Shown here: piece after piece, positions 2,898 through 33,800 of the stretch | Position numbering within the stretch: position 1 is the stretch's first letter | How the letters are laid out: each line of letters begins with the position of its first letter | DNA from: a virus | Taxonomy: Duplodnaviria; Heunggongvirae; Uroviricota; Caudoviricetes | Direction: 5' to 3' (one strand) | Virus record (IMG/VR): IMGVR_UViG_2506381017_000002 | DNA: 35,270 bases | Notes under the pieces: generated by a model | Database searches by the model: none | The model's input: only the letters and a program-made list of their open reading frames with translations | Told to the model about the DNA's origin: nothing | Made by a program: the position numbers and the translations under genes

Positions 2898-3164
2898 ATG
2901 TTAAACAAGAAAGATTTAATTGAAATTATTGCAAAGCAACAAGAAACTACAAAGGTTGAAGCTAAGAAGATTGTGGAAGCCTTTACTGATGGTATCAAGT
3001 CAATTATGAAGGATAACAAGTCAGTAAACATTACAGGCTTTGCTAAGTTTGAAAGTAAGTACAAGGAAGCTTACAAGCGTGTGTTTGGTGTAACTGGTGA
3101 ATTAATTGAAGTTCCAGCACATCACGTACACAAGGCAACTTTATCAAAGAAGATTGCTGAATAA
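2898..3164 (+). CDS. hup: HU-family histone-like DNA-binding protein (88 aa)
   Basis: MLNKKDLIEIIA...KKIVEAF...VNITGFAKF...TGELIEVPA follows the HU/IHF pattern; the arm-tip GRNP motif is altered. Confidence 0.85.
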   Translation: MLNKKDLIEIIAKQQETTKVEAKKIVEAFTDGIKSIMKDNKSVNITGFAKFESKYKEAYKRVFGVTGELIEVPAHHVHKATLSKKIAE

Positions 3165-5757: not shown

Positions 5758-7227
5758 ACAAGAAGCCAAGCTGCAAATATCATTTCACAAAAGATAGTGG
5801 ACTTTTACGATCAATCAGCAGCAGTTCGATACGAAATAGGTTACAAGAAGGACCATATTAAAACGACGGTCAATGAGGCAAAGGTTGAGTTTAAGAATGG
5901 ATCGAGGATCTTTGCCGCTACATCTGGTGAAAGTGCTCGTGGTTTACGTTGTAATATCTTAATCTGTGACGAATTTCGTCTGATTAAGAAAGAAACATTG
6001 GATAAGATTCTAAAACCGATGCTTAACGTTTACCGCCAGCCACCATATTTATCGAAACCAGAATATAGTCACTTAAAGCGAGAGGAAAACAAACAGATTT
6101 ACATTTCTTCTGCTTGGTATAAGTCGCATTGGATATGGGACGAATTCAAGAGCTATTTTAAGAAAATGACCAATTCGGATAAGCGTTATTTCGTTTCAAT
6201 TCTCCCATATCAATTATCGGTTAAGAGCGGATTACTTTCACAGAGTGCGGTTGATGCCGAAAGAACGAGTGACACATTCGATCAAACGAGTTTTGATATG
6301 GAATATGAAACTATATTTGTTGGTGAAAATGATAAAGCCTACTTCAAGCTTGATCCATTAAACAAGATTAGAACGGTGGGAAAGACGTTTAGACCTCCAA
6401 CTAATCAAGAATTCGTTGAAAATCAACATAGATCAAAACCAAGAACGTTGTCGAATTTCAAACGTGTCGATAAAGTAAATGAAATTAGAATAGTAGCCCT
6501 TGATATTGCCTTAATGGGTGGAAATAAGCTCGTTAAGAACGATACATCAGCATTTACGTTGATGAGGTTAATTCGTGAGGGTGATGAATATAAGCGCCAG
6601 GTTGTCTATTTGGAAAGTATTCAAGAGTCAATTTCTTCGGAGAACTTAGCTATTCGTTTAAAACAACTATATTACGACTTTGAAGCCGATTATGTAGTTA
6701 TGGATGCGAATGGTAATGGGTTAGGAGTATTTGATGCTTGTACAACCGTCCTTACAGATAAAGATCGTGATATAGAATATCCAGCCTGGGCTTGTATCAA
6801 TGATGACGAAACAAACGATAGAACAAAAACTAAGGGAATTAAATGTGTATATACGGTTAAGGCAAATGCGGCTTTCAACCACGAAATTGCAGTTTCCCTA
6901 AAGAATGTCATTGAATCTGGAAAACTCAGATTACCTATGAATGACATTCAAAAGCGCGAAGAATTACAGGAAGATAAGGAATATCGAAAGTTGCCGGCCG
7001 AAGAACAAATTAAGGTCTTATATCCATATGTTCAAGCGACTGCATTGGTCAACGAGTTGGTAAACCTTGAATATACCGTTAGAACTGGATATATCAAGAT
7101 TTACGAAGTCGGAACCACAACAAAAGATAGGTATAGTTCGATCGCCTACTGTAATTATTACGCGAATGAATTAGAAAAAGATTTAAAAGAAGAAGCAGCT
7201 GACAATTTTAGCTACTTTATGATCTAA
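5758..7227 (+). CDS. terL: Terminase large subunit, exon 2 (489 aa; spliced protein 584 aa)
   Basis: SGESARGLRCNILICDEF (Walker B), nuclease acidic motifs VALDIA, DTSAF, VVMDANGNG, KDRYSS. Frame is open from 5758, upstream of the track's GTG at 5797. Confidence 0.9.
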   Translation, partial: TRSQAANIISQKIVDFYDQSAAVRYEIGYKKDHIKTTVNEAKVEFKNGSRIFAATSGESARGLRCNILICDEFRLIKKETLDKILKPMLNVYRQPPYLSKPEYSHLKREENKQIYISSAWYKSHWIWDEFKSYFKKMTNSDKRYFVSILPYQLSVKSGLLSQSAVDAERTSDTFDQTSFDMEYETIFVGENDKAYFKLDPLNKIRTVGKTFRPPTNQEFVENQHRSKPRTLSNFKRVDKVNEIRIVALDIALMGGNKLVKNDTSAFTLMRLIREGDEYKRQVVYLESIQESISSENLAIRLKQLYYDFEADYVVMDANGNGLGVFDACTTVLTDKDRDIEYPAWACINDDETNDRTKTKGIKCVYTVKANAAFNHEIAVSLKNVIESGKLRLPMNDIQKREELQEDKEYRKLPAEEQIKVLYPYVQATALVNELVNLEYTVRTGYIKIYEVGTTTKDRYSSIAYCNYYANELEKDLKEEAADNFSYFMI

Positions 7228-7242
7228 ATAGGCGGTGGAGTT

Positions 7243-8808
7243 TTGGCGAATAGACGCAGAAATATGCGAGGAAAACGACGCACCTATGAGCGAAATATAG
7301 CAGCTATCCGTAGAAGAAATGCTGAATATGCTTCTGTTTTAGCTGATCCAAAAAGTCGGTTTAAGCCAAGTACAAGTGCAGCGACCGAAAAAAGTAATAT
7401 TAAGAGCTACTTACAGAGACCTGCTGATAACTTTGCACAAATAGCGGCAACCTTACGGCAGGCATATTTAAACAGCGGAATTGTAAGCGGTGTCATAGAC
7501 TATTACGTTGCTCATCCAACATATAATTATTCAATTTATCCTGTCTTGGGTAATAAGCAATATGCCATTGGTGGCAACATGCAAGAAGATTATATCGATG
7601 TGGCATATCAATTAAATTTATTGAATATAAATTATTGGGCACCAAAATTCTTTAAGGATACCTTGCTAGATGGGGTTACCTTTTATATCAAGATCGAAGA
7701 TTCTACTGGAATAGCATATATGAAGCTCCCTCCTGAGTGGTGTCGTATTTCTAATTTAGAAAATGGAGTATATCGATTTAGAATCGACATTTCTAAATTA
7801 AAGCAAGAACAATACGATGAACTACCTAATGAACTTCAGCAAGCTTACGACAAATATCATGGGAGCGGCATAAGCGACGATGACCAAGATTGGTATGACC
7901 GTAAATGGTACCTGGTATCAGACGACGGTGTTGCTTTTACTTTTGACCATAATGCTATCAACAATGGTGGAACGGCGGTTTCTCCATTCGCAAGCGTATT
8001 GGCAGATAGTCTTTCCCTAGACGCTGCTAAAGACAATATTGATATAAAAGATAAGCTCGATACAGTACGACTAATTCATTCAAAAATACCAACTGACAGT
8101 AATGGGACACCATCGTTAGATTTAAAGACAGCTCGTAATTTTGATGATCAAATGAGGTCAAGATTACCAGAAGGTGTTGTTGCTATTACTAGTCCTTCTT
8201 CATTGGACAACATTCCTTTGAAAGGATCGGGTAATGAAGGAATTTACGATACTGTAAACAATGGATTAGAACAATTATTTTATGACCTGGGTATCAGCTC
8301 ATCATTATTTGGTGGGAAAACTACGAGTTCTAACATCGTAAAAGAATCCGTTAAAAAGGACTCCAATTGGATTTATACAAACTTATTTCCGATGTTGGAA
8401 GCTTATTACAACTTTGAACTTAGCCAGGTAAAAACGAAAAGTAAGATTCCGTGGAACTTGAAGTTCATTAGGGAATCAAACTTCACCTTAAAAGAAGATA
8501 TTGCTAATTATAAAGATCAACTTAGCTACGGTGGTTCAAGACTTGATTATTTGGCTTCTGTTGGATTTACACCAGATCAAATAATCTCTCAATTAACCTT
8601 TGAGCAACAAGCGCTTGATATTGATTCAATTATGGTTGTTAAGCCAACGTCAAATACCATATCAAGCAAAGAAGCCTCGACAGGTAGTGGGAAGACAATA
8701 GTTAAATCACCTAATAGCAATATAAATAATCCAAATAAAGGCAACGTAGGACGACCAGAAACGGATAATCCAACTGATGACACTGATCGTTTGAGTGATG
8801 CCGCATAG
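7243..8808 (+). CDS. Portal protein (521 aa)
   Basis: Follows terL; portal-sized; TTG start with RBS GGTGGAG; low-complexity C-terminus ending in a GRP motif as in SPbeta-like portals. Confidence 0.8.
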   Translation: MANRRRNMRGKRRTYERNIAAIRRRNAEYASVLADPKSRFKPSTSAATEKSNIKSYLQRPADNFAQIAATLRQAYLNSGIVSGVIDYYVAHPTYNYSIYPVLGNKQYAIGGNMQEDYIDVAYQLNLLNINYWAPKFFKDTLLDGVTFYIKIEDSTGIAYMKLPPEWCRISNLENGVYRFRIDISKLKQEQYDELPNELQQAYDKYHGSGISDDDQDWYDRKWYLVSDDGVAFTFDHNAINNGGTAVSPFASVLADSLSLDAAKDNIDIKDKLDTVRLIHSKIPTDSNGTPSLDLKTARNFDDQMRSRLPEGVVAITSPSSLDNIPLKGSGNEGIYDTVNNGLEQLFYDLGISSSLFGGKTTSSNIVKESVKKDSNWIYTNLFPMLEAYYNFELSQVKTKSKIPWNLKFIRESNFTLKEDIANYKDQLSYGGSRLDYLASVGFTPDQIISQLTFEQQALDIDSIMVVKPTSNTISSKEASTGSGKTIVKSPNSNINNPNKGNVGRPETDNPTDDTDRLSDAA

Positions 8809-8821
8809 GTGAGGTTAAAAA

Positions 8822-10483
8822 ATGATTGATGTAACTACGGTAAATCTACCGACTCACTTTGAAGAAATTGAGAGTTGTAATGATTCGAGATTTCAAAAGG
8901 TGAAAATTTATATCGCTCATACCGGAGAGAACTTAAATAAATCGATTTTCTCACGAGAAGTTCTTGAAAATATGATCCCATCTCTTTCACATATTCCAAT
9001 TTTAGGACTGATCAGTGAAAAAGATAACGGTGATAAAGATTTTAGAGGTCATGAGAAGAACCTATCGTTGGAAGATGGAAAATTCAAAATTAAGTTTAAT
9101 ACTCATGCGTATGGGTTTGTTCCAGAAGATAACAACGCTCATTTCGAGATAACTGGCGGTAAAGAATGGCTAGTTACTGATGGTTATCTTTGGACAAGAT
9201 TTATTGATGCCATGGAACTCTTCAATGATGCAAGTGGTTCTAAAGGACAGTCAATGGAAGTGGGAGACGTTGAAGGTTATACAGATAATCGAGGAAGATT
9301 AGTATTTACCAATGCTGTATTTACTGGATTATGTATTCTTGGTGACGATGTACCGCCTGCAATGACTGGCTCAACGGTATCAACAGTATTTAGTAAGCAA
9401 GACTTTAAGTCGAGTTTTGAAGAAATGTTAGCCGAATTCACGGCTGAGAAAGGAGAAAAAGCTTTGGCAACTAAGAAAAAGCAAAATGATGAACCAGCAG
9501 TAGCAACAACGATTACAGAACCAGAAAGTTCTGCAAGTACTGAACCGGCTAAACCAGCTACGCCTGCCTCATCAGCTAATACCAGTAGCGCTTCTAAACC
9601 AGCCGCAGAACCTGCAAAAGCAGATGACAAGACAAAGGCTAGTCCTGCTTCACCAGACAGCTCTACATCTGATGATAAGCCATCAACAAGTGATACAAGT
9701 GCCGGACCAGCAAGTGGTGAAAGCAGTGATTCAACTGATGAAAATGCTGAGATGTCTAGTAAGAAGGACGACAAAGATACTAATTTTTTAAACAAAAATG
9801 AAAGCGCTTTCAAAAAGGATGAAGAGGAAGACGAACCCGACTCCGAGGATGCGGAAGATGACAAGGAAGACAAGAATAGGTTCTCCCAATTCGAACTCAG
9901 TCTTTCAGATCGGGAACGCGCATTGAGCGACGCCGTTCGCCAAAGATACGAAGACGACATTGTTGTAGAAGGAGTTTGGCCGGTAGATATCTTTGAAGAT
10001 TACGGAATTTTCAAATTCGTTAACTGGTCTAACGACAACAGACAACTGTTCCGCATCGCATACAGCGTTAATACTGATGACTCAATCAAATTAGGTGATA
10101 AAACAGAGATTTTCTCAATGTATGTCACTCAAGAAGAGAAAAACAAGATTGAGGACAATCGGGCGAAATTAGCTGATTTAGAAACTAAGATCGCTGAACT
10201 TACTGAGTACAAGAACAACATTGAAATGTCTAAGAAAGAGAAGGCATTGGACGAGGTTAAGGCTTCATTAACAGCTGAACAAATGAAGAATATCCGGGGC
10301 AAGTTTACAGAAATGTCTGTAGAAGACGTTGAACGAGAAATTGCCTACGCGATGTACTCAGCTAATAAACAAGAATTTACACACTCCAAGCGTGGAGGGG
10401 TTCGGACCACGAATTTCAACGCTAAGCAAGAGAGTGATTTTGGCTATGGAACGGCAGATGACCTGTTCCGTAAACGATATTAA
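8822..10483 (+). CDS. Prohead protease/scaffold fusion (553 aa)
   Basis: N-terminal globular domain (HTGENLNKS...GQSME...FTGLCILGDDVPPAM), a P/A/S-rich then acidic linker, and a C-terminal coiled coil; lies between portal and capsid genes. Confidence 0.7.
   Translation: MIDVTTVNLPTHFEEIESCNDSRFQKVKIYIAHTGENLNKSIFSREVLENMIPSLSHIPILGLISEKDNGDKDFRGHEKNLSLEDGKFKIKFNTHAYGFVPEDNNAHFEITGGKEWLVTDGYLWTRFIDAMELFNDASGSKGQSMEVGDVEGYTDNRGRLVFTNAVFTGLCILGDDVPPAMTGSTVSTVFSKQDFKSSFEEMLAEFTAEKGEKALATKKKQNDEPAVATTITEPESSASTEPAKPATPASSANTSSASKPAAEPAKADDKTKASPASPDSSTSDDKPSTSDTSAGPASGESSDSTDENAEMSSKKDDKDTNFLNKNESAFKKDEEEDEPDSEDAEDDKEDKNRFSQFELSLSDRERALSDAVRQRYEDDIVVEGVWPVDIFEDYGIFKFVNWSNDNRQLFRIAYSVNTDDSIKLGDKTEIFSMYVTQEEKNKIEDNRAKLADLETKIAELTEYKNNIEMSKKEKALDEVKASLTAEQMKNIRGKFTEMSVEDVEREIAYAMYSANKQEFTHSKRGGVRTTNFNAKQESDFGYGTADDLFRKRY
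9464..10483 (+). CDS. Possible nested in-frame scaffold protein (339 aa)
   Basis: In-frame TTG at 9464, 8 nt after AAAGGAG (9449-9455), at the boundary between the protease domain and the linker. Confidence 0.45.
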   Translation: MATKKKQNDEPAVATTITEPESSASTEPAKPATPASSANTSSASKPAAEPAKADDKTKASPASPDSSTSDDKPSTSDTSAGPASGESSDSTDENAEMSSKKDDKDTNFLNKNESAFKKDEEEDEPDSEDAEDDKEDKNRFSQFELSLSDRERALSDAVRQRYEDDIVVEGVWPVDIFEDYGIFKFVNWSNDNRQLFRIAYSVNTDDSIKLGDKTEIFSMYVTQEEKNKIEDNRAKLADLETKIAELTEYKNNIEMSKKEKALDEVKASLTAEQMKNIRGKFTEMSVEDVEREIAYAMYSANKQEFTHSKRGGVRTTNFNAKQESDFGYGTADDLFRKRY

Positions 10484-10508
10484 TCAAATGAGAGAAAGAG
10501 GTTAAAGA

Positions 10509-10949
10509 ATGGCTGAAGTTATTTTAGACAAGATTAGTGCTACTGCGCATATTGATAGCGTTGTGGCCGAAGAAGATCTAAAGAACGGTCAATGGTTAAC
10601 TTTGGGCCTTCTTGATGCAGACGGTGAACGTCGTTTAGCAACAAAGGCAGCAAAGGAAGAAGAAGCAGATGTACTTCTTGTAACTAGTTTTACTAAGTAT
10701 GACCCTAACACAGATTTCGCAGATTACGTAACTAAGAGAGGTCAAACAGGACGTGGATTCCACATGATTTCTGGTGACGTTATCTCTGTAACTAAGGATT
10801 TAGTTGCTGGAGCTAAGAAGGGTGACAGCCTAACCATTGGTGACGATGGATTAGGTTTCAAGAAGGCAGAAGGTCGCGGTATCGCTCAAATTATTGGCGA
10901 AGAAAATCAAGGCTTTTACGGCGACATGTTTGTGATCGCAATTCGCTAA
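10509..10949 (+). CDS. Head decoration / capsid auxiliary protein (146 aa)
   Basis: Small beta-rich protein directly upstream of the major capsid gene; call is from position. Confidence 0.5.
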   Translation: MAEVILDKISATAHIDSVVAEEDLKNGQWLTLGLLDADGERRLATKAAKEEEADVLLVTSFTKYDPNTDFADYVTKRGQTGRGFHMISGDVISVTKDLVAGAKKGDSLTIGDDGLGFKKAEGRGIAQIIGEENQGFYGDMFVIAIR

Positions 10950-10969
10950 TAAGGAAACGAGGTAAATTA

Positions 10970-11953
10970 ATGGAAAAGAATGATTTTATGAAATTTGCTC
11001 GCGACCTCTACTTCCACAAGGAATTTACAAAAGGCGAAGTTTCAGGTCAAGAAGCAATGCGTAACGCTATTTTAGATGCTCTTGGTGGCGAATTTACCCC
11101 AACTTCATGGGGCAAGAATAAATACGATGTTTTCGAATTGATTTCAGAAGCAGTTGATGCTGTTGTTCCACGTTTGTTAACTGATCAATTTGCAAACATT
11201 GCCGATGTTCGGACAGTTGCACTTGGTGAAAAACCAATTTTCCAAGTGAAAGATCCAAAGGCTATTCGAGTTGGTCGTGTAGCTGCTGGTGACCAAGACA
11301 TTCGTCGGCAAACAATTAAGGATACTCATTACTCAATTGAAACAGAAGACTTTGGTGCATCTGTATATACAGAACTTCATCAATTCATGACTGGAACAGT
11401 TGATTGGAGCGACTTAATTGATCGGGTTGCGCAAGCTTTTACCAACCACATTCAAGCAACTATTGCAGAAGCCTTAAATGATAGTTACTCATTGCTTGAC
11501 GCAACTGACAAGATTACTGGTAAAGCAACTCTTGATCAAATTGTTAAGTTAGCAGAACGAATTCAAGTTAAGTCTAACAGTAATGTAGAAGTTTACGGCA
11601 CTAAGGCTGCTTTAAGTAAATTAGCAGAAATGGCTAATGTGAACCTTTACTCAGGATCAATGAAAGATGAATTAAATCAAAAGGGCTACCTAGGTGTTGT
11701 GCGTGGCTTGAAGTTAAATGAAATTCCACAGGCATTTAAGGTTAATAAAGATGAGTTTGCCCTTGACGACAACAAGCTTTTGATCCTTCCAGAAGGTGAA
11801 AAGATTGTTGGTGTAGTCATGGAAGGTGACGCTATTACAGTTGAACCAGATTACACAGGACGTAATGATTTACAAATGGGCTTTAAGACGATCGAACGGA
11901 TTGGAATTATGGCTCTTCAAATGAAAGTGTACGGTATGGCCGACTTAGGCTAA
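10970..11953 (+). CDS. Major capsid protein (327 aa)
   Basis: Size and position fit an HK97-type capsid protein; RBS GAGGT; followed by a stable hairpin. Confidence 0.75.
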   Translation: MEKNDFMKFARDLYFHKEFTKGEVSGQEAMRNAILDALGGEFTPTSWGKNKYDVFELISEAVDAVVPRLLTDQFANIADVRTVALGEKPIFQVKDPKAIRVGRVAAGDQDIRRQTIKDTHYSIETEDFGASVYTELHQFMTGTVDWSDLIDRVAQAFTNHIQATIAEALNDSYSLLDATDKITGKATLDQIVKLAERIQVKSNSNVEVYGTKAALSKLAEMANVNLYSGSMKDELNQKGYLGVVRGLKLNEIPQAFKVNKDEFALDDNKLLILPEGEKIVGVVMEGDAITVEPDYTGRNDLQMGFKTIERIGIMALQMKVYGMADLG

Positions 11954-11959
11954 TCGTTT

Positions 11960-11990
11960 AGCTGAATGGGGTTCGACTCCCTATTTAGTT
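11960..11990 (+). other. 12-bp hairpin with tRNA T-loop (TTCGACT)
   Basis: AGCTGAATGGGG-TTCGACT-CCCTATTTAGTT; 12 pairs, 4 of them G-U. Confidence 0.75.
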
Positions 11991-12023
11991 GTAGTGACTA
12001 AGTACGAGAGAGAGGTTTTGAGA

Positions 12024-12587
12024 ATGTCACGTGAACAAAAGCGCCGGAAGCGCAAAATTATTGACCCCTCAACCGAAATAGTAGTGGCAAATAATACATA
12101 TGGAATATTTGCTTATGAATCAAATAATGGGGCCCTTTCTTTTGTTTTGGAAGAAAACGGTGATGAAGAATATATCACATATGCCGAAGCAAGAAAGTTA
12201 AAGAAATACTTTGAAAATATGTCTTTATTAATAATTGACGTCAACTCCGAGGAAGACATTTCAATTATGGATGTAGTTCGTGGATTGAGATTAACTGATG
12301 TTTATAAATCATATCTTGAGCTAGTTGAAGGTTTCGAAGAAGACGAGTTTGACGAAGTAGAAGCGTTATATGCAGAGGCATTAGCAGATTTCTGCTTAGA
12401 CTCTGAACTTGACGACTTCAAGAAGGCATTAAAAACACCTTTAAGAAACGCAGTTATTATGACGACTGTTGAAATGTATAAGCAACGGCGGTTATCTGAT
12501 CGTGATAAACAAGACCTTGTAAATACCAGAGGTGAAGACTTCTGGGCCGATATTGATGTATCGGTTCGTGCAGCAGAAGGTCGCTAA
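12024..12587 (+). CDS. Hypothetical virion morphogenesis protein (187 aa)
   Basis: ATG 12024 after AGAGAGG is favoured over the track's start at 11994; basic N-terminus, acidic body. Confidence 0.6.
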   Translation: MSREQKRRKRKIIDPSTEIVVANNTYGIFAYESNNGALSFVLEENGDEEYITYAEARKLKKYFENMSLLIIDVNSEEDISIMDVVRGLRLTDVYKSYLELVEGFEEDEFDEVEALYAEALADFCLDSELDDFKKALKTPLRNAVIMTTVEMYKQRRLSDRDKQDLVNTRGEDFWADIDVSVRAAEGR

Positions 12588-12612
12588 ATCTTGTTTGGAA
12601 GGGGAATCTTTC

Positions 12613-13071
12613 ATGGCAAATGAGAGCAATGACCCGAAATATACATATTATGAAGAAGTCTATAAGGCGTTCTTGAATACTGTTGATTCATATGATCTTC
12701 CACGATTGGATGATGATGAATTGGCAGATGTCCTTTACGGGTATATGGACGCGGGTCGTTTGATGTTTAGCACTTATATTGCTAAAGATTTCATGGATGA
12801 TGACCCAGAAAATAAGCGTTTCAACTTTAAGATGACCAGGATTGAGATCACTCTTTTAGCCCAAGCAATGAAACTTGAATGGGTTAGGGAACACTTGAAT
12901 TCCGAAGAATTGATGAGAAAAGCAATCGGTGACCGAGATTACACAACAGTGCAAGGTTATCAGTATATCGACAGATTGCAAAATATGGAAAAGCAATTGA
13001 GCCGTGAAATTACTGCGCAAATCAATCGTTTGGAATATTCAAATTCAGAGCTCTATGGAGAAATGAAATGA
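12613..13071 (+). CDS. Putative head-tail adaptor (152 aa)
   Basis: ATG 12613 after GGAAGGGGA; helical TYYEEVYKAFLNTV start; first gene of the neck region. Confidence 0.55.
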   Translation: MANESNDPKYTYYEEVYKAFLNTVDSYDLPRLDDDELADVLYGYMDAGRLMFSTYIAKDFMDDDPENKRFNFKMTRIEITLLAQAMKLEWVREHLNSEELMRKAIGDRDYTTVQGYQYIDRLQNMEKQLSREITAQINRLEYSNSELYGEMK

Positions 13072-14129
13072 GTAGTTTTTCAACATCTTATCGTAGAAAA
13101 CAAAAAGTCCTCGGAGATAACAGGGTTACAAGAAATTATAACCGTCGACTTGAGGAATTTAATTTGTTCTATCGGGATACGTTGACAAGGCATGATTGTG
13201 TAATTGATGGTGTCCCAACGCAGGCGGTCTTTCAAGATCATTCACAAAGTAACAATAAAGATTTGTCTGATGACAAGTACGTTGTTGTCCCAAATTCAGT
13301 TGAAGTTGGTGTGGGCTCATATATTGAATGGGCGGACGAAACATGGATGGTTTTTACAGAAGAATATAAGACCATTCCCACCCATCAACAATTAAAGATA
13401 AAGCATACGAATAGACGGCTTAAGTGGTTGACGAACAAGAACAGTAAGCTGATTTGCAACTTTGGGAAAGGTTGGCCTGCTTATGTACAGAACCAGACGC
13501 TTTATACATTAGGGGTGTCATTCGCAGGACAAAATATCGCATTAGCGAATGCAAAGATGTCTGTCTATATCAAAGATATTCCTGAAACGCGTGCAGTTAA
13601 GGTTGGGACCAGATTATGGATAGCTGGGCAAGTCTATAAGGTTGAATTCGCTGACTACGTATCAAGACCGGGATTAGTTAACTGGTTATTAGACGAAGAT
13701 ACAAAGAATCCGGAAACCGATAATTCTGACTTAGAAATAGCTGATTATTGGAATTCTGGAGGTAAAGACGAAGATGATTCCATAAAAGACGTATCTAAGT
13801 CGACTGTGCCTACAAACGGCTCTGGCAGCAGCCATTCTGAGGACGAAAAGCCGAAAGCTGAATGGAACATCGAAGGAACAATTAAAGCTCGCCTAGGGCA
13901 TACCTATGTCTATACAGCGATGAATTCTGATGGAACTAAGGCAGATGTCTCCGAATGGATGATTGGAACCCTTGAAGACTCTCCATTTTATGTAAAAGAA
14001 AAAGATAATCATAGCATTACTGTGACCGTGAAAGACATCTATAAGCTAGTTGGACAAACAGTAACAATCACAGCAAAAGCCAATGACGAAATAAAAAATA
14101 TTGCAATAAAAATTATAAAGAAGTTCTAG
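13068..14129 (+). CDS. Putative head-closure/neck protein with C-terminal Ig-like domain (353 aa)
   Basis: Overlaps the upstream stop (ATGA); beta-rich; C-terminal NIEGTIKARLGHTYVYTA...VTITAKAN looks Ig-like. Confidence 0.5.
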   Translation: MSSFSTSYRRKQKVLGDNRVTRNYNRRLEEFNLFYRDTLTRHDCVIDGVPTQAVFQDHSQSNNKDLSDDKYVVVPNSVEVGVGSYIEWADETWMVFTEEYKTIPTHQQLKIKHTNRRLKWLTNKNSKLICNFGKGWPAYVQNQTLYTLGVSFAGQNIALANAKMSVYIKDIPETRAVKVGTRLWIAGQVYKVEFADYVSRPGLVNWLLDEDTKNPETDNSDLEIADYWNSGGKDEDDSIKDVSKSTVPTNGSGSSHSEDEKPKAEWNIEGTIKARLGHTYVYTAMNSDGTKADVSEWMIGTLEDSPFYVKEKDNHSITVTVKDIYKLVGQTVTITAKANDEIKNIAIKIIKKF

Positions 14130-14132
14130 GGA

Positions 14133-14696
14133 GTGAATGAGAGAGTGCCCGCAAAGGAAATTACAAATGAGGCTCCAAAACATGTGTCTTCAGTTATGAA
14201 GATTAGTGAGTGGAAACAGCAAATGATGGAAACAATGGCAATGGATGATGATTTAGCAAAATTACTTTATTATGACTCATCTGATGCATTAAGCCGTCCT
14301 GATTTAACCGAGGAGCAAAAATATGAACTGGTAACAGAGGGAGAAGAAAAGCGTCGGATTTATCCAACAAGATATAAGCCTGGGGTCGTTATGGACCAGC
14401 AATCATTTATTGGTATGGCAATTTCTAATTTCTCATTTCCAGAAATTCATTATCACGTAGATAGTGATTTCGTGATGGGGTACTTATACTTCTTTATCCT
14501 TGTTGATAACAAAATTATGGATATCGATGAAGGACAAAGGCAAGATCAAATACTCGCTAGAATTTATGACTTATTCTCCGATTCTAGAAGATACGGAATC
14601 GGGACTGTAAAAATTGGCCAACTTTCCGAATTATGGGAGCAAAACAATAAGTTTGGCGGCTACCAACTAATGATGAGAGTATACGACTTTAAGTAA
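14133..14696 (+). CDS. Putative tail terminator/completion protein (187 aa)
   Basis: Position in the neck module upstream of the tail tube gene. Confidence 0.45.
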   Translation: MNERVPAKEITNEAPKHVSSVMKISEWKQQMMETMAMDDDLAKLLYYDSSDALSRPDLTEEQKYELVTEGEEKRRIYPTRYKPGVVMDQQSFIGMAISNFSFPEIHYHVDSDFVMGYLYFFILVDNKIMDIDEGQRQDQILARIYDLFSDSRRYGIGTVKIGQLSELWEQNNKFGGYQLMMRVYDFK

Positions 14697-14708
14697 AGGA
14701 CGTCTGCT

Positions 14709-15512
14709 ATGAGAATTAACTATTCTTACGTGATTCTCGGGAAAGATATACCCATAAACGATAAGGTAACTTTTCATATTCCCACAATTGGCGAACTAGC
14801 AGAAGCAGAAAACAATGACTTTAGTGATTGTACTCGTGTTTTTGTAACAGGGGTTCGGGAACAATTTAGTGGTGTTCCTGAGCAGGTTGATCTGATAGAA
14901 GAAAGATTCCCGTCTCTATGGGATATGGCTTTTGACGATGAAATGAATGACCTTGTTGGAGAGGCCATGTTTGGTAAGGGCGCTACTTTATTACGACAAT
15001 TTTTGAAAGCGATTTCGTACTGGACTAGGACGAAAGAAGAACAGTACAAAATCCTGAGTAATAAAAAGATCGTAAGCGAAGAACTGGATTGGATTATCGA
15101 CAGGGAAACATACATTGACCTATCCAACCTAATCAAAGCAGTTACTTTGTCAAAGCCCAATAGGGATTTGATTGCACCCAAGGGTGTGGGAAGTAATCCG
15201 AGAAAGATTCAAATGTGGAAAAACACATACAAAGGTCGATTACAACAAGCCATGAAAAGAAAAGGAACGGAATTAGGAGATCAAATCCTTCAGCTAGAAG
15301 TATTTGCGCCTGGATACATTAGCTTTGCTGATATTCAAGGTATGACCTACTACCAGTTTTCAAATCTTTTATCTGCTTACACCGCTAAGTATTCATCAGA
15401 AAAACAGTATCAGATTTACACATCAGAAAAGTTCGATACGAAAGATATGAAGATGCCTGATCTAAACGAAGAAATAAAACTAATCAAATTTGATGAAAAA
15501 AATAAAGACTAA
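14709..15512 (+). CDS. Conserved phage morphogenesis protein (267 aa)
   Basis: Clean ORF with an upstream AAAGGA; specific function not recognised. Confidence 0.5.
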   Translation: MRINYSYVILGKDIPINDKVTFHIPTIGELAEAENNDFSDCTRVFVTGVREQFSGVPEQVDLIEERFPSLWDMAFDDEMNDLVGEAMFGKGATLLRQFLKAISYWTRTKEEQYKILSNKKIVSEELDWIIDRETYIDLSNLIKAVTLSKPNRDLIAPKGVGSNPRKIQMWKNTYKGRLQQAMKRKGTELGDQILQLEVFAPGYISFADIQGMTYYQFSNLLSAYTAKYSSEKQYQIYTSEKFDTKDMKMPDLNEEIKLIKFDEKNKD

Positions 15513-15535
15513 ATACGAAAGGAGACATTGATTAT

Positions 15536-16642
15536 ATGTCTACTTATGGTTTGAAGGATGCGTCAAATATCACATTTGTAAAGCGTGGTACTACTACTCC
15601 CGTTTTATACATTGATTACGCAAACCAAACAAATACTCAATGGCAATCTAACCGTGTATATGCCAAGAAGAAGGGTACACAAGCAATTGCATGGGACTCT
15701 GCACGGACTGGTAAGTTAACCATTCAAACTGAAATGTTTGATCTTCGGCTCTTAGCAATGATGGCCGGTGATGATGACTTACATAAGGGAACAAACACTA
15801 TCTTTAAGCGAAAAGTATTCCAATTACGAGGAGATCGCTTAATTGATTTAGGCGCAAAGCCAGTTGAAGGTTCTGTATCTGTGTTCCGTGTAGACGACAA
15901 GGATAAGCGTGAACACATTACTGAAATCCCTATGTTAGTTTCTGGAGACGCTGGTTCAGTTCCACAAATGGTAACTGATGTTGCTGTTTCTGCCAAGGAT
16001 ACAACTGCAACAATTACTTGGAGTTCTACAGCCAATGCAACTAGTTATGTTGTTTACCGAAATGGAGTAGCTACTGGATACCCTGTTGGTACTTCATTTA
16101 ACGACTCAAACTTAACTCCTGAAACAGAATACAAGTACACAGTTGTTGCTAAGAATGAGGCAGGACAATCAGTTCAATCTGCTGAAGTAGTTATTACTAC
16201 TGCTACATCAGGTACTAAAGAGGCCGGCGCTGCTGTTAAGGCAACTGAAGATGCAATCAAGAAGGCACAAGAAAATGCTAGTGGGGCCAACTTAAATGGC
16301 TTGTACTTCAAGATGACTGATGGTGGAAACGGAATTCAACTTTCTGATGAAGCCGTTGTCGGTGCTGCTTACGCAGTGTACTACGTTGTAAAGCAAGACG
16401 GTGTATCTTCCTACACTATCAATGCACTTAAGTTTGCAACTAACTACGAAATTTACGCCGATGCCGTAATTCGTTCCCAAGACGGTGAAGATAAGTTTGC
16501 GCAAATTCACTTTACTAATGTAAAGCCCGCTGCAAATGTAACATTCAACCAAAACTCAGAACAAGTAACTTCCCTTTCATTAGAATTTGACTTGTTAGCT
16601 GATGAAAATAACGACCAAGCTATTTACGAATACATCGAATAG
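15536..16642 (+). CDS. Major tail tube protein with an internal fibronectin type III domain (368 aa)
   Basis: MSTYGLKDASNITF start and SLSLEFDLL end are tube-like; FN3 pattern TATITWS...SYVVYRNG...SFNDSNLTPETEYKYTVVAKN at about 15962-16201. Confidence 0.75.
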   Translation: MSTYGLKDASNITFVKRGTTTPVLYIDYANQTNTQWQSNRVYAKKKGTQAIAWDSARTGKLTIQTEMFDLRLLAMMAGDDDLHKGTNTIFKRKVFQLRGDRLIDLGAKPVEGSVSVFRVDDKDKREHITEIPMLVSGDAGSVPQMVTDVAVSAKDTTATITWSSTANATSYVVYRNGVATGYPVGTSFNDSNLTPETEYKYTVVAKNEAGQSVQSAEVVITTATSGTKEAGAAVKATEDAIKKAQENASGANLNGLYFKMTDGGNGIQLSDEAVVGAAYAVYYVVKQDGVSSYTINALKFATNYEIYADAVIRSQDGEDKFAQIHFTNVKPAANVTFNQNSEQVTSLSLEFDLLADENNDQAIYEYIE

Positions 16643-16647
16643 CTATT

Positions 16648-16678
16648 AGCTGGATGGGGTTCGACTCCCCATTCAGCT
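16648..16678 (+). other. 12-bp hairpin with tRNA T-loop (TTCGACT)
   Basis: AGCTGGATGGGG-TTCGACT-CCCCATTCAGCT; 12 pairs, one G-U. Confidence 0.8.
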
Positions 16679-16728
16679 TTCAACTAAGTAGATTAAATTA
16701 ATCCATTTATACGGTTATGAATGGACAG

Positions 16729-16758
16729 AAAGTCCGAAACCTCGGGCTTTATTTTTTC
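16729..16758 (+). terminator. Intrinsic terminator between tail tube and tail fibre genes
   Basis: AAAGTCCGA-AACC-TCGGGCTTT followed by ATTTTTTC. Confidence 0.7.
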
Positions 16759-16794
16759 AAGAATTTATAGATTTTACAAAAAGGGGAATCGTTG

Positions 16795-26769: not shown

Positions 26770-27798
26770 TTGAAACGAAAAGAAGGATTAACGTATCAAA
26801 CAAAAAGCGATAGAAAAATCGTAAGATACGCAACGAAAGCAAGAATGGCAAAAGTAAATCCTAAAAACATTAAGATTTATGAGCGCTATCTTAAGAGTCG
26901 AATCATTCACAATTCTGATGTTAAAGATACTACTTATAAGGTTTACCACTCTTATATGAATATCTTCATGTGTTATATTGCAGAAGAATGGGACAATTTT
27001 TATCTTTTAGATGAAGATATGCTAGAAGATGAAATGATCGACGTAATGGAAGGCTATATGGCTTTCCTTGCCGATGAATGTGGTAATGGTAAAAAAGTCA
27101 TTAACACTAAATTAAGTGCTGTATCCAGTTTCTACCTATGGGCAACTAAGCGAGGAATGATTCGAAGTCATCCTTTTGATGGAAAATTAGACCGTATTAA
27201 GAATGCTCAAGATGAAAAGAAGATTTCAGTTCACTTTTTACACGAAGACAAGATTAATCAAATTTATAAAACTCTTGAAGAAGAAGCAGAACCTGAGGGA
27301 GCAAGATATGATTATCAAGACAGATTGATTTGGGAGATTGCTTTTTATAGTGCTTGTCGTATTGGAGCATTGTATAACTTAAGTTTGTCTAATCTGAAAC
27401 TTGATGAAAATAAGTTTGTCGACATTCGAGAAAAGCGAGGAAAGAGAGTGGAGGTTCCGTTCACAAATGAAACTAAGGAATTAATTAAGAAGTTCCTTAA
27501 GTGGCGTGAGGATAATGGAATTGATACAGATGCGTTCTTTGTTAATCGCCTAGGTGGTCATATGAGTAAACAAGCCATGTCAATCCGTATTCGCAAAATA
27601 GGAGAAATTGTTGGTGTTGGTGATTTCAGAGCTCACAGTATTCGTAAGAGTCGATTAAACCAAGTTGGGCAAAAGAATATTGAATTAGCTAAGCAATTAG
27701 CACACCACGAATCAATGGATACAACAGCACGCTTCTATATGGAAAAGAAGAGTGAAACAGCAACATTGAAAGAAATCGATGCATTACTTTCAGAATAA
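26770..27798 (+). CDS. Tyrosine recombinase (XerC/D-like, 342 aa)
   Basis: Catalytic set: SACRIGAL (R), RAHSIRK (HxxR), LAHHES (H), TTARFY (Y); N-terminal core-binding region INTKLSAVSSFYLW. Confidence 0.9.
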   Translation: MKRKEGLTYQTKSDRKIVRYATKARMAKVNPKNIKIYERYLKSRIIHNSDVKDTTYKVYHSYMNIFMCYIAEEWDNFYLLDEDMLEDEMIDVMEGYMAFLADECGNGKKVINTKLSAVSSFYLWATKRGMIRSHPFDGKLDRIKNAQDEKKISVHFLHEDKINQIYKTLEEEAEPEGARYDYQDRLIWEIAFYSACRIGALYNLSLSNLKLDENKFVDIREKRGKRVEVPFTNETKELIKKFLKWREDNGIDTDAFFVNRLGGHMSKQAMSIRIRKIGEIVGVGDFRAHSIRKSRLNQVGQKNIELAKQLAHHESMDTTARFYMEKKSETATLKEIDALLSE

Positions 27799-27897: not shown

Positions 27898-30800
27898 TTG
27901 GCAAGTAAAGAACTGTCAATAAAAGTTAAAGTTAACCTCCCAACGGCAGGGGAAATTGAAAATCAAATTCAACGTTCTCTGCGTGGGTTAAAGGATATTA
28001 AGGTTGACGCAAATGTAAAATTAAAAGTTGGCAAGCTTGGCAATCTCAAACGCCAACTAAGAAATGCTCTTGGTAAAGAAAACTTTAGAGTAAACGCAAA
28101 TGTTAAAGTACATGGAATGTCCGAATTAAATCGGGTATCCAGTAAATTAAAAGAAATTAGACGTTTAGCAAATGAGCCAATTAAGTTAAACGTTGATATG
28201 GGTGGACATGATTTTGATAAGTCCATCGAAGAGGCACGGCGAAAGGCTAATAAAGAGTTAGAGAATACTAATTCTAGAAGTCACTATGCTCGAGCAGCAG
28301 TTGATGTGCAAAAGGAAATGCGAGCACAACAGCGTGCTATTGAAAAAGCACAACAAGAGTATTTAAAGCTCCAAAATCAAGCTGCTAAGGCTAGTGACGA
28401 ACGTATTCGACAAAATATACAACATTATGCTAGTCAAGTTGCTAAACAACAAGAGCAAGCTGAAATGCGGTATAGAATGGCTGCGAATAAGGCTGGCTTG
28501 AGTGATTCAGAAATTAGTAAAAATGTTCTTGGTTTCAGAGAACAGCCCAAAGCTCGCATGACTCTCAAGAACACTGAAATTGAACAACAGTTAAAAAGAG
28601 ACGCAGAAGCCTTTAGGAGATATAAAAGTGCATTAAATGACGTCACTAAAGCGCAAATGACCCTGGCAAAAGGTGGTTTAGGTGACAATGTGTTTGCCGA
28701 AGTTCAGAGACAAGCTGGGGCAGCAGAAAAAAAGGTACGATCTCTTGAAAGTGCTATAAGAAAAACAAAGTATGCATCTCAAGCATCAGATCTTAGAGAA
28801 GCTTCAGACGCAAGAATTAGAATGGCGCGAGCTCAAGCGGCAGATCGGGAAAATGTAAAGATACGTCGAGGTAGAAAATCTTCTGCTGGCATGATGAATA
28901 CCTTAAACACTTGGGACGTATTACAAAATGGTATATATGGAGCCGCTGCTGTTGTAAATGGTTTAAATGAAGTTGATAAGGCCATTACAAAAGTTACAAA
29001 AGTTGTTCCCGACAGTCAAGCAGCAGTAAATAGATGGAAGAAGAATATCTATAAGGATGCTTCAGAAGTTGGTAAGACTGCTCCAGAATTTGCTGCCGCT
29101 GTAGAACAATGGGCAACAGCTGGATATAATCTTAAACAATCAAATCGTCTTGCAAAGGCGTCAGTTATGGGTTCTTTCGTTGGTGAAGTGCCTGTAGAAG
29201 ACATGGTTAAGTATATGTCTGTTCCAATGAAAGCTTTCCAAAAGGAAGGTATTAAATCGAAAGACATTATTAACGCAATGAACCAAGTTTCTAACAAACA
29301 TGCCATTGAAATGAATGACTTGGGGGCTGCATATCAGAAAGCTAGTTCAACAGTTGGTGCTACTGGAACTAAGTTCTCACAACTAACAGGTATTATTACA
29401 GCTGCTCAAGAAGGTACTCGTGCGGGTGGAGATATGATTGGAACCGCATATAAGACGATTGGCTCACGTCTTGCTAAGATGGGTACTGGATTAACAAAGC
29501 AGGATCAAACCCGTGCAGCGTTCTTTAAGAAGTTGGGTGTTGATTTAACTGACAGCAATGGAAAGTTGAAATCTACTTGGCAAATTATGGATCAGTTAGG
29601 TAAGCAATGGGATAAGTTAGATAGTAAAGACAAGAATACGGCAGCTCAATATGCCGCTGGAGCGAACCATGCTAACATTTTCCAAGCTACGATGGATAAT
29701 TGGAAAATCGCACGTAAAGCCATGAAAGAAGCACAAGCTCAGGTTGATTTAAAAGATAAAGATCATGGATCGGCATATCAAGAATTTGAGAAGCAAAAGC
29801 AATCTATCGAATTCCAGTTAGCTTCATTAAAGAATACATGGATGTCATTCTTAAACAATATATCTGGTGGTAGAGAAGGAATTTCCCAAATTCTTCAAAG
29901 TCTTAATGGAATAGGATCTGTTGCAGATAAACTTGCTTCAAATAAATTATTCTCACAAGCTATTAGATGGGGTGCAATCACTGCTGGAATAGTTATGGCA
30001 CGTAACGCTATAACAGGAATGGTTAAAAGCTTTGCAAGTATTGGAAATGCGGGCAAAGGAATTGAGGGATTAAAATCTAAATTTACTAATGTTGGAAGTT
30101 CTGTTTCTGAATTAAAGGCAAAAATTCATGAATTAAGAGCAGAGTTAGATGGCTTAAATGCCAAGGGCTTTAAGTCAAAAACAAAGCTAGATAGAGATGC
30201 AAAAGGAAGAACCAAGGGAGAGTATACAGGTAAAGACGTAGGTTTAATTAAATACTCTATTCCAGAGAATAACGTCCTCCAAACTAGACGTGGGGCCCGA
30301 AGACAATATGGTCTATCTAAGAAGTATCCAACTCATTTTGCTCCAAAGGAACTTGCAAAAGAAAATGAAGATTTAGCAAAATCATATTCAAATGTTACTC
30401 CTGCAATTAGTAGAGCAGAACAAAAACTAAAAGACACCAATGGTACTCTTTCTAAAGGAACTAAAGCAACTGCTAAATTAGGAAAAGTCATGGGTGTTGC
30501 TGGTAGTGTACTGGGAGTAATTGGTAGCGGACTTGGTGTCGTTGGATTAGGCATTGATGCGATTACTATTGCGTCAGGAGCCTTAGAAATGATGGGCGTT
30601 CATCCATGGGAGCTTATCCGAAAGGCAATTAAGCCGGCCCAAGCTAATGCTGAAGCATTTAGTAAATCTATGCAGAAAATTCATTCCGATATTGGAAATG
30701 TTAATTCTGGATTAAAAGACAATGTATTATTTAATGGCACTGCTGAAAAGTCGAAAAAGAGTCTTTCTGGATTAGATAAAGTCTTAAAAGGCGTTACAGA

Positions 30801-33800
30801 TGGTTCTAATCAATTGAGCAAAGGTGACTGGAAAAACTTCAAGGATAGCTTTAATGCAATTTCAAAGGCTAATGGGCTTGGAATTAGAGCATATTCAAAT
30901 AATGTTGAAGTCTTAAAAGGCCAAATGACAGATCTTAAGAATGCTATTCACGATGTTAACTTGGAACAACTAAAGTCTGGTTCAAGAGAATTAGATAAGC
31001 TTGATAAGACTGGTAAAAAAATTAATAGTCAAAAGACATTAAATGACTTACTCAAGACTAATAATGATTATCTAAAAAAATCTAAGGAATTAGAGCAAGA
31101 GCGAGACAATGCTAATAACGGGGTTACAAATAGTGCTCAAGCCAAGAAGAATAATGATAAATATGAGCACAAGTTAGCAGCTTTACGTGGCTCTGCAATT
31201 CGTAAAGAAATGGGTTCCGCTGCGTACCAAGAGTGGGCTCAACAATATCAAGACTATGGTGACTCTGTAAGAAAACAATATGGTGAATTAGCATCGATCC
31301 TTGATTCTGGTATATTCAAGAAGACAGACTTTAATATGATGTCTTCAAATGAATTGCGGAAGATGGGAACTGCTCAAACTATGAATCTGCAAAATGCAGC
31401 TAGAGCAAATAAAATTTGGAATGATGTTAATAAGCAGTTAACTCAGAATAATAAATTAGGCAGTCAGCAAGGTAAGTTAACAAAAGAGCAACAGCAATAT
31501 CTTTCTAAGAATGTTAAAGGACTTGAAGGTATTAGTCGTAACATGAGTAAGTGGACTGATGCTCAAAGAACAGCGTTCGATGAGTATGGTAAGACTGCGG
31601 CAAAGAATCTTAAGAATCAACAAAGTCGAATGATGGATATCCTTACGGCTCAAGGAATGTCAAAAAGTGCTGCTCAAAAACAAATTAATAAGCTTGACGG
31701 TACTGGTTCAGGATATATTAATGCTCTTGGGAACAATTACAATGCTCAGGCATTGTTGAATGTTGATCCTGATTATGCGGCGTTATATGGGAAAAAGTGG
31801 TTCCCACAGCTACAAGAGCAACAGCGGCAAATTCAAAATTACCAGAATAGAAAAGGAAAAAAGAATAGCGATACAATAGATGCATTTCTTGATCCGCAAA
31901 CTGGGGTAATGAATACTGGTATGATCGCCAGAAGTCAGGCTGTTATGACCTATAACTCAAAGCGACAAAAGCAATTCCAAAAGATGGGATTCATTGATGG
32001 CGATGGGAATATAAAATTCGATAAGGTATCAGACGCATTTGCTGGTGTTAAAGGTCGCGATAATCCAATGCAGCTTATTAGTTCATTAGCAGATGGTTCT
32101 ATTAATAAGTTTAGTAAGCTGCATATTTCTGCAAACCAAGGCCATGGAAAGTTAACTAAGGATGTTAAAAGTGATATCAGAAACTTGGTGAAGAGTAAAG
32201 GAGCTGAAGCGGCAAGAAATTATATTAAAGGGTTACAAGCCGATAACGTCTTAGGAAAAGATGCAATGAATTACTATGATACCCTTGATCGCAAAGGTAA
32301 TGAGACTAAGCGAACACCTAAGAGTCAGCGTAGTCAAAGAAAGCCATCAGGTTCTAGAAAATCTTCAGGGTCATCTAAAAAGAATTGGTACGACAAAGAT
32401 GATGATGACCCAATGGCGAAACCATTATGGAAACGTAATGATACTAAACCATCATCAAGTCGTCATCGTGGTACATCGAAGCCTGATACTAAGAATCAAC
32501 CTAGAACTTCTAAGAATCAGCAAAAAGCATTAGAGAAAGCGGCACAAGGTAAACAGCAGACCAAGAGCCCTAATTTAATACCTAATTTGCTTAAGAAATT
32601 AGGACTTATTACAGATGCGAAAGCTGATACTAAACCAAAAACAGCCAAGGATGTCGAAAAGAATCTTAAGGGCCGTAAGGTATCAGACAAAGAGCTTAAG
32701 AATGCTCAGGCGCTCCTTAAGAACAAGAAAGAGCAGAAAAAACTCGAAGATGATTTGAGGAAGAATGGGCAATTAAAGACTTCGAAACCATCTAGCTCCA
32801 ATTCTAATAAAAAGAATTCATCAAAGAATAAGAAACAAGCCGAAAAGGAAGGGCGCGAAGAAGAGAAAGCCCGTCAAAAGGGTAGAGATAGTGCAAAGAA
32901 AACATCATCCAAGAAATCTAATTCTTCCAAAAAACAGAATCAAGAACAAAAAGATCTTGCCAAACAGTTAAATAAAGGCAAAGGAGTAAAAGTAAAACTT
33001 CAACCAGATGCTAAAAGTTTAACGAAGGGGTTGAAAAATCTTGGTGGTAAAAAAGGTACCAAGATTAAGTTACAACCAGATACAAAATCTCTTACAAAAG
33101 GCCTTAAAAACTTAGGCGGCAAAAAGGGTACTAAAATAAAACTTCAAGCCGACACGAAAAGTTTAACAAAAGATCTTAAGAATCTCGGTGGTAAAAAAGG
33201 CACTAAAGTCAAGTTACAAGCAGACACCAAGGGACTTACTAAGAGTCTTAAGAATCTAGGCGGTAAGAATGGAACAAAGGTTAAGCTTCAAGCTGATACT
33301 AAGTCTCTAACAAAGAGTTTATCTAATCTTGGTAAAGGTAAAGGGGTAAAGGTAAAGCTCCAAGCAGACACCAAAGGACTAGATAAGTCACTCAAAAGCC
33401 TAAAAGGGCTTAAAAAGTCTCAGAATATTAAGATTAATGTTTCTGGTAACGCTTCAAGCAAGATAAGTAAGATCAAGTCTTCTCTAAATGGGTTGAGTGG
33501 TAAGAGTAAGAATATCTCTATTAACGTTCGAGGTAATGCAGTTAGTCAGGTAAATAAAATAAAGTCTGCATTAAACGGGATAAAAGGTTCTAAGAATATC
33601 TCAATCAATGCCTCTGGTAACGCAGCCTCCTTTGCTTCCAAGGTTAAATCATCGCTTGCCGGAATTCATAATAAGCATGTAAATATTAGTGCTTCTGGCA
33701 ACGCTGCATCGATGGCACAAAGAGCGTCCTCAGCAATTAATAGTATCCCGACTAGTCATCAGACGAATATAACTGCTCACGATGGAGCCTCTCCTAAGGC

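Follow-up and report, generated by a model that had tools for sequence, protein, structure and literature searches.

The IMG/VR virus record IMGVR_UViG_2506381017_000002 is a stretch of 35,270 nucleotides (nt), called here ‘the window’, which we assign to an SPbeta-like phage-plasmid of Limosilactobacillus reuteri. Directly downstream of its genes for the major capsid protein and the tail tube protein lie two short hairpins, the subject of this report, that resemble the acceptor and T-arm half of a tRNA and that we refer to as ‘minihelices’. The capsid gene occupies positions 10970–11953 of the + strand (stop codon TAA, 11951–11953) and matches phrog_4088; by tblastn, its open reading frame (ORF) shares ~30% identity, across 98% of its length, with proteins annotated as major capsid proteins. 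The matches come from large siphophages of Bacillota (Tsamsa-like and SPbeta-like phages, the Lactococcus 949 group and Sundance). The tail tube (major tail) protein gene lies on the same strand at 15536–16642 (stop codon TAG, 16640–16642). It has an inserted FN3 domain (Pfam fn3) and matches virion structural and major-tail PHROGs (phrog_2729/7440), and the top Foldseek matches to its AlphaFold2 (AF2) model, which has a predicted local distance difference test score (pLDDT) of 67, are tail tube proteins (9jgh, 9jgi, 8xkn and 6xgr). A first-pass annotation, made from the letters alone, had already called these two genes capsid and tail tube, and both names hold, the one by its ~30% identity to annotated capsid proteins, the other by its tube-type model. 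Both genes belong to a head–tail gene string (5797–16792) with only two sizeable intergenic gaps, of ~70 and 149 nt, and each gap holds one of the hairpins.

Minihelix 1 (11960–11990, + strand) starts 6 nt past the capsid stop codon, and minihelix 2 (16648–16678, + strand) starts 5 nt past the stop codon of the tube gene. Each consists of 12 contiguous base pairs (bp) capped by a 7-nt T-loop, UUCGACU, and the two score 54.9 and 52.1 bits, respectively, with covariance model R1. Three of the pairs are G–U in minihelix 1 and one in minihelix 2. The copies differ at four places, all within pairs and all still paired, as the first-pass annotation had said in describing the substitutions as neutral for pairing; its positions, gaps, stem lengths and common loop tip are likewise as it gave them when the sequence is read again. 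The 14-nt tip common to the two copies occurs twice, against 0.04 times expected, and no other perfect hairpin with a 12-bp stem and a 7-nt loop occurs on either strand of the window. Dinucleotide shuffles of the window yield a mean of 0.47 such perfect hairpins, with a loop of any sequence. Folding energies on the + strand are −17.6 kcal/mol for hairpin 1 and −22.9 kcal/mol for hairpin 2. On the − strand, hairpin 1 does not fold, its three G–U pairs having become A–C there, so the structure belongs to the sense RNA.

What these hairpins resemble is one half of a tRNA. The GGTTCGACTCC motif of the T-arm is found at both sites, and the stem can be read in each case as seven acceptor-like pairs stacked coaxially on five T-stem-like pairs, 12 bp in all, with a 7-nt loop that follows the T-loop consensus and is closed by G53–C61. 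By this combination of features we class both hairpins as acceptor/T-arm minihelices, and we consider their nature as tRNA mimics strongly supported. The two arms adjoin directly, with neither a D arm nor an anticodon arm. That absence had been reported at the outset, together with the absence of a 3′ CCA and of a good U-tract, and it is confirmed at both hairpins; U accounts for two of the first eight bases past stem 1 and four of the first eight past stem 2. ARAGORN finds no tRNA genes in the window, and no Rfam family reaches its gathering score there. A terminator scan calls neither of the full 12-bp stems; its sole call at the hairpins (11968–11980) is a sub-hairpin of five pairs within minihelix 1.

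The minihelices recur in related phages, in loci anchored on the capsid gene and drawn from IMG/VR, GTDB genomes and metagenomes (a scan of the metagenomes returned the lineages already found and no others). In each lineage with a capsid identity of 55% or more, a hairpin follows the capsid gene at the same site; after the tube gene it is present in most lineages, but not all. Stem sequences are almost wholly replaced from lineage to lineage while their pairing persists: 98.3% of cells in the stem alignment are paired, and 8 of the 12 pairs show double-sided changes among 15 distinct variants. None of 500 shuffled controls reaches the observed pairing and covariation, and when the 3′ partner is slid out of register, pairing falls to 46–58%. 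Of 17 variants, 15 have a 12-bp stem and the other two carry one bulge each. The capsid copy of the Limosilactobacillus ingluviei relative (L027) has a single bulged base precisely at the junction of the seven and five pairs, and one tube copy has 11 bp plus a bulge. The positions that do not change, G52G53–C61C62, U54, C56, A58 and U60, are the same as the invariants of the tRNA T-arm; in addition, U55 is present in 15 of 16 variants and position 57 is a purine in all 16. The survey of relatives proposed in the first-pass annotation thus finds placement, loop and 12-bp length kept while the stems covary, and we take the minihelix structure to be under selection. Between close relatives, tube alleles are mosaic. 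The nearest named record, the L. reuteri ‘plasmid’ p53608_1 (138.5 kb), is itself a phage-plasmid because it contains RepA and ParA plus a complete virion module; over its whole length, the full minihelix with this loop occurs at just the two sites. Megablast with the region as query, against 50,697 phage records, found no near-identical phage.

More distant phages have other structures at these positions. After the capsid gene of Staphylococcus SPbeta-like 2, Lactococcus phiL47 and Bacillus Tsamsa come GC-rich hairpins with loops of 4–6 nt and U-rich tails, and after the putative tube gene come strong terminators. Since plain hairpins or terminators occupy both positions in these distant relatives, the positions are general 3′-end or stability sites of the phage superfamily; the Limosilactobacillus lineages fill these general sites with a tRNA mimic.

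The sequence that follows each stem is also patterned. Past minihelix 1 comes a discriminator-like base, G, and then an invariant base that corresponds to U74 of a pre-tRNA (11991–11992, + strand); past minihelix 2 the same alignment columns hold U and again the U74-like base (16679–16680, + strand). A putative processing cut would fall between the two bases in each case. Across the variants the first base past the stem varies (G, A or U), and the second is U in 16 of 16. Following minihelix 1, alignment of the flanks across lineages reveals a conserved leader for the next gene (11993–12023, + strand; ATG at 12024), with a GTGAC box and a GA-rich Shine–Dalgarno sequence. The distance from hairpin 1 to this start codon is near-constant, 31–35 nt, across lineages. 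The GTGAC box (11994–11998), 3 nt past minihelix 1, is complementary to a GTCAC (12026–12030) that lies over the start codon of the next gene, and the two could form a 5-bp helix enclosing the Shine–Dalgarno sequence. This complementarity is kept in four lineages, and GTCAC is also coding. Downstream of minihelix 2 lie a second hairpin (16702–16725, + strand), with a 6-bp stem and a 12-nt loop, and then a canonical intrinsic terminator (16729–16757, + strand), called by the terminator scan, with a 9-bp stem and a T-run, which closes the tube transcript 50 nt past hairpin 2. Although their flanks differ, the L. reuteri, L024 and L025 lineages share the hairpin at 16702–16725 almost without change.

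Which enzyme might read such elements can be judged by comparing them with the tRNAs of the host. In Bacillus subtilis, RNase Z acts on pre-tRNAs that lack an encoded CCA, and a U within 2 nt after the discriminator stimulates it ~200-fold, according to the account in PMC10100781, which cites Pellegrini et al. 2012. The minihelices have the sequence pattern of such Bacillota RNase Z substrates: no CCA, and a U within 2 nt past the discriminator-like base. Our tRNA sample comprises 58 distinct genes from a related L. reuteri genome and its phage-plasmid. None of the 58 encodes CCA; 49 have U74 and the other nine have C74–U75. The same genome encodes RNase Z (384 bits, over the cut-off), a nucleotidyltransferase of the CCA-adding type and a type B RNase P RNA. 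At the 5′ side, the likeness ends. U−1 is present in 55 of the 58 host tRNAs vs 9 of 16 minihelices, and the terminal pair is G1–C72 in 44 of the 58 vs A1–U72 in 15 of 16 minihelices, so that the features RNase P prefers (G+1 as G1–C72, and U−1) are not those of the phage elements. They look to be tuned like the 3′ half of a pre-tRNA, and not like the 5′ half. Acceptor/T-arm minihelices are reported to be accepted by RNase P, by tRNase Z and also by the CCA-adding enzyme (PMC3714273), and the first-pass annotation had proposed recruitment of tRNA-processing enzymes without choosing among them. The RNase Z part of that proposal gains from the invariant U, the host enzyme and the CCA-less host tRNAs; the RNase P part loses, and RNase Z is favoured over RNase P because G1 and U−1 are not kept. 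The annotation of p53608_1 includes no RNase Z, CCA enzyme or RNA polymerase. We rejected, for that replicon, the idea of a phage-encoded tRNA enzyme or YonO-type polymerase, none being annotated; scans of five large unnamed ORFs on it give a helicase, exonucleases, an integrase and a partition protein. We also rejected tryptophan tRNA identity (A1–U72 with G73), which suits hairpin 1 alone; position 73 is A or U in the other variants.

Beyond this family the motif is scarce. A 44-nt covariance model, searched against 151 Lactobacillaceae genomes, turned up a single additional copy, carried by an unrelated prophage of myovirus type in another Lactobacillaceae genus (L078 8578–8610; G093:C1:154577–154609). 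This copy has a 12-bp stem and the loop TTCGAAT, followed by U–U, the second U corresponding to U74. Sheath and tube genes come first there, followed by an inserted Arc/RelE-type toxin–antitoxin cassette with its own terminator, then the minihelix, and then the chaperone and tape measure genes. A 33-nt model, searched against 151 Lactobacillales genomes, found one chromosomal copy (in G165) plus two weak, terminator-like matches. The chromosomal copy (L081 ~1501–1531; G165:C3:160359–160391) has a 12-bp stem, the loop TTCGACT and a T-run, and sits downstream of a PstS-like gene, ahead of the next gene; it may be a terminator whose loop is T-loop-like, or else a use by the host of the same device. 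With so few copies outside the phage-plasmids in the R1 and R2 searches (151 + 151 genomes), we dropped the notion of a widespread chromosomal element. By these searches the motif is rare in the genomes covered, yet not limited to one phage family.

The window holds a third T-loop element, more tRNA-like than the minihelices (2810–2853, + strand). Its parts are an outer stem of 7 bp, a 5′ linker of 11 nt with a D-loop-like GGG, and a T-stem of 5 bp with the loop UUCGACU; it lies 45 nt upstream of an HU-like gene (2898–3164). Both stems covary in the homologues of L016 and L093, whose loops are TTCAACT and TTCGATT; the element is absent from the L024, L027 and L028 lineages, and covariance models R1 and R2 do not detect it. 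In form it resembles the tRNA-like domain of transfer-messenger RNA (tmRNA) more closely than it does a minihelix. The idea that it is tuned for RNase P only (no U74) was discarded, the L093 homologue having U/A at those positions. The related phage-plasmid (L079; G001:C2:99500–105500, minus strand) encodes a tmRNA of its own, with the tag ANNHRVTALAA, alongside at least six tRNA genes, none of which has an encoded CCA. The T-loop of this tmRNA, TTCGACT, is identical to the minihelix loop, and the cluster includes a degenerate minihelix (10 of 12 pairs, loop TTCGATT, then A–U–U) plus an orphan T-arm that is not called as a tRNA.

Elsewhere in the window, a tyrosine recombinase gene (26770–27798, +) lies in the tail module directly before a giant tape-measure-like ORF (27898–35268, +), a placement that matches that in SPbeta-like phages (L072 and L073). 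The giant ORF holds 72-nt tandem repeats (32989–33348). A 60-nt direct repeat, 80% identical (806–865 and 1874–1933, +), lies upstream of the consecutive ORFs 1111–1857 and 2028–2750, and is probably a duplicated promoter or operator region.

To the hairpins themselves we ascribe, as an RNase Z mechanism that we consider plausible, the following role. They would act in cis within the late + strand transcript, as RNA mimics of that half of a tRNA in which acceptor stem and T-arm are stacked coaxially. Host RNase Z would dock at the T-loop end, measure 12 bp and, activated by the next U, cut past the discriminator-like base, at 11991|11992 and 16679|16680. The cut would give the capsid and tube mRNAs a stable minihelix at the 3′ end, perhaps lengthened by CCA, that bars 3′ exonucleases; the downstream RNA would be severed, bearing a 5′ monophosphate, and output of capsid and tube would be raised relative to that of neighbouring cistrons. 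Cleavage, CCA addition, stabilization and the effect on stoichiometry are, all four, steps that we infer from sequence. That a cut by host RNase Z leaves these two mRNAs ending in a protective minihelix has, in our judgment, about an even chance of being right.

Several observations weigh against it. The L. mali relative, at 54% capsid identity, has a plain hairpin of 7 bp with a 3-nt loop after the capsid gene. The L. ingluviei relative has a terminator with a GNRA loop after the tube gene, and in two lineages the tube site holds an ordinary hairpin or none. Since one relative at the capsid site and two lineages at the tube site do without the T-loop form, that form is dispensable. The terminator 50 nt past hairpin 2 would already protect the 3′ end of the tube transcript, and so the need for a cut there is unclear. 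The U-rule for RNase Z was set up in B. subtilis, not in Limosilactobacillus, and we know of no RNase Z rule that accounts for the near-invariant A1–U72 (15 of 16).

It is possible, though doubtful, that the hairpins are not cut at all and act as stabilizers or attenuators, blocking 3′ exonucleases or causing RNA polymerase to pause, with the loop kept for a protein that reads T-loops (a modifier of the TruB or TrmFO type, or a phage protein). Ordinary hairpins at the same positions in SPbeta-like, Tsamsa and 949-group phages fit such a role, and an invariant loop is what one expects of a protein-binding site. What it leaves unaccounted for are the strict 12-bp length and the invariant U two past the stem, and we identified no candidate phage protein among those of the related 138-kb replicon.

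We regard as unlikely a cleavage by RNase P, whether by itself or jointly with RNase Z, where the minihelix begins on its 5′ side (11959|11960 and 16647|16648). It would yield a downstream mRNA shielded by a 5′ stem or, if RNase Z cut too, a freed, CCA-tailed minihelix of 31–34 nt. The host has the type B RNase P RNA, minihelices are substrates of the enzyme (PMC3714273), and its cuts at the t-elements of plant mitochondria form mRNA 3′ ends (PMC1920247). The spacing around hairpin 1 also suits it, for the distance to the next start codon is steady (31–35 nt) and the stop-to-hairpin distance at the capsid gene varies from 5 to ~50 nt among relatives. Nevertheless, the 5′ side of the minihelix is not tRNA-like (U−1 in 9 of 16, A1–U72 in 15 of 16) whereas the 3′ side is; a 5′ cut would remove the 3′ hairpin from the capsid and tube mRNAs; and there is no cistron between hairpin 2 and the terminator for such a cut to serve.

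Readings of the hairpins as terminators or as DNA-level features are disfavoured. It is quite improbable that they are weak or factor-dependent intrinsic terminators in which the tRNA-like loop is incidental. Their position after highly expressed genes, their stable stems and the two or three U's after the stem would suit termination, but the U-tracts are poor (two of eight and four of eight), the full stems escape the terminator scan, and a true terminator stands 50 nt past hairpin 2; nor would termination fix the sequence of a 7-nt loop, or an exact stem length, over 45% protein divergence. There is a faint chance that double excision by RNase P and RNase Z, with CCA-tailing, frees tRNA top-half mimics that act in trans late in infection, in which event the freed mimic might, for instance, act as decoy or sponge and draw off host defence toxins that target tRNA, or factors that bind the T-loop or acceptor. 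A stimulator of readthrough or frameshifting was considered and rejected, in-frame stops occurring within 3 and 14 codons, and the stop–hairpin distance in relatives ranging as widely as noted above. Least credible of all is an origin at the DNA level or in non-functional sequence (a sequence for recombination or at a module boundary, a palindrome bound by protein, or the remains of decayed tRNA genes), which would fit the mosaic tube alleles and the degenerate minihelix and orphan T-arm in the family's own tRNA/tmRNA cluster, but not G–U pairs that are A–C mismatches on the opposite strand, compensatory changes that keep the RNA helix, or 98% pairing, which is not expected of a decaying remnant.

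If RNase Z (or RNase P) does cut these hairpins, then the phage uses the machinery of tRNA maturation to punctuate and stabilize its late mRNAs. RNA ends are predicted at 11991 and 16679, and these should depend on the loop, the 12-bp length and U74. The minihelix would then be a simple, portable, 31-nt module for setting relative gene output within operons of Bacillota, and would stand for a kind of RNA signal left unannotated, one that tRNA finders and gene callers pass over. Such a principle is documented for mitochondria and for a few eukaryotic long RNAs; in the literature searched, we found no instance in phage structural operons, and nothing relevant on phage minihelices or phage tRNA-punctuation elements.

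Comparison with known systems places the minihelices between two kinds of signal. In position, and in presumed role, namely the abundance of capsid mRNA over downstream genes, they resemble the hairpins and terminators that follow the capsid gene in other phages, such as the T-phi terminator after gene 10 of T7, and those of the SPbeta-like phages, Tsamsa and phiL47. They differ from these in form: the post-capsid hairpins of other phages have short, variable loops and U-tracts and serve termination, whereas in the minihelices the T-loop and the 12 bp are fixed and a U-tract is lacking. In form, they recall tRNA-like signals. In animal mitochondrial transcripts, and in bacterial and phage operons, tRNA-shaped units between cistrons guide RNase P and RNase Z to cut the messages apart; such units work as tRNAs, whereas the phage minihelices, without D or anticodon arms, cannot decode. 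The MALAT1 mascRNA and its MEN-beta counterpart are tRNA-like structures at the 3′ end of a long transcript on which RNase P, RNase Z and the CCA-adding enzyme act in processing. The family that they form in Rfam, mascRNA-menRNA (RF01684), is the best match to the hairpins at E<10, but the score, 16.1 bits against a gathering score of 42.5, is insignificant and below gathering, and the hairpins are therefore not members. The Tymovirus tRNA-like 3′ element (RF00233) scores 13.6 bits against 40. Unlike the phage minihelices, mascRNA and MEN-beta are eukaryotic and nuclear, and have a cloverleaf-like fold.

Structurally, the synthetic acceptor/T-arm minihelices used as enzyme substrates have the same 12-bp coaxial stack and 7-nt T-loop (PMC3714273). 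These are laboratory constructs, whereas the phage elements are natural and are conserved inside mRNAs. The closest analogues, by likeness and not by membership or homology, are the t-elements of plant mitochondria: tRNA-like structures, with the T-arm motif GGTTCRANYCC, that lie beside protein-coding genes (Forner et al. 2007, PMC1920247). They are cis signals for RNase Z and/or RNase P, form the 5′ and 3′ ends of mRNAs and, when released, bear non-templated C or CA (PMC1920247). Like them, the phage hairpins carry the GGTTCRANYCC motif next to a coding gene and outside any canonical tRNA. The t-elements, however, are non-canonical cloverleaves of ~70 nt, organellar, and with mapped ends, whereas the phage elements are bare minihelices of 31 nt that follow virion genes and whose cleavage is putative. 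What is new here is thus the phage, minihelix-only form; the principle, that of tRNA-like processing signals within mRNA, is a known one.

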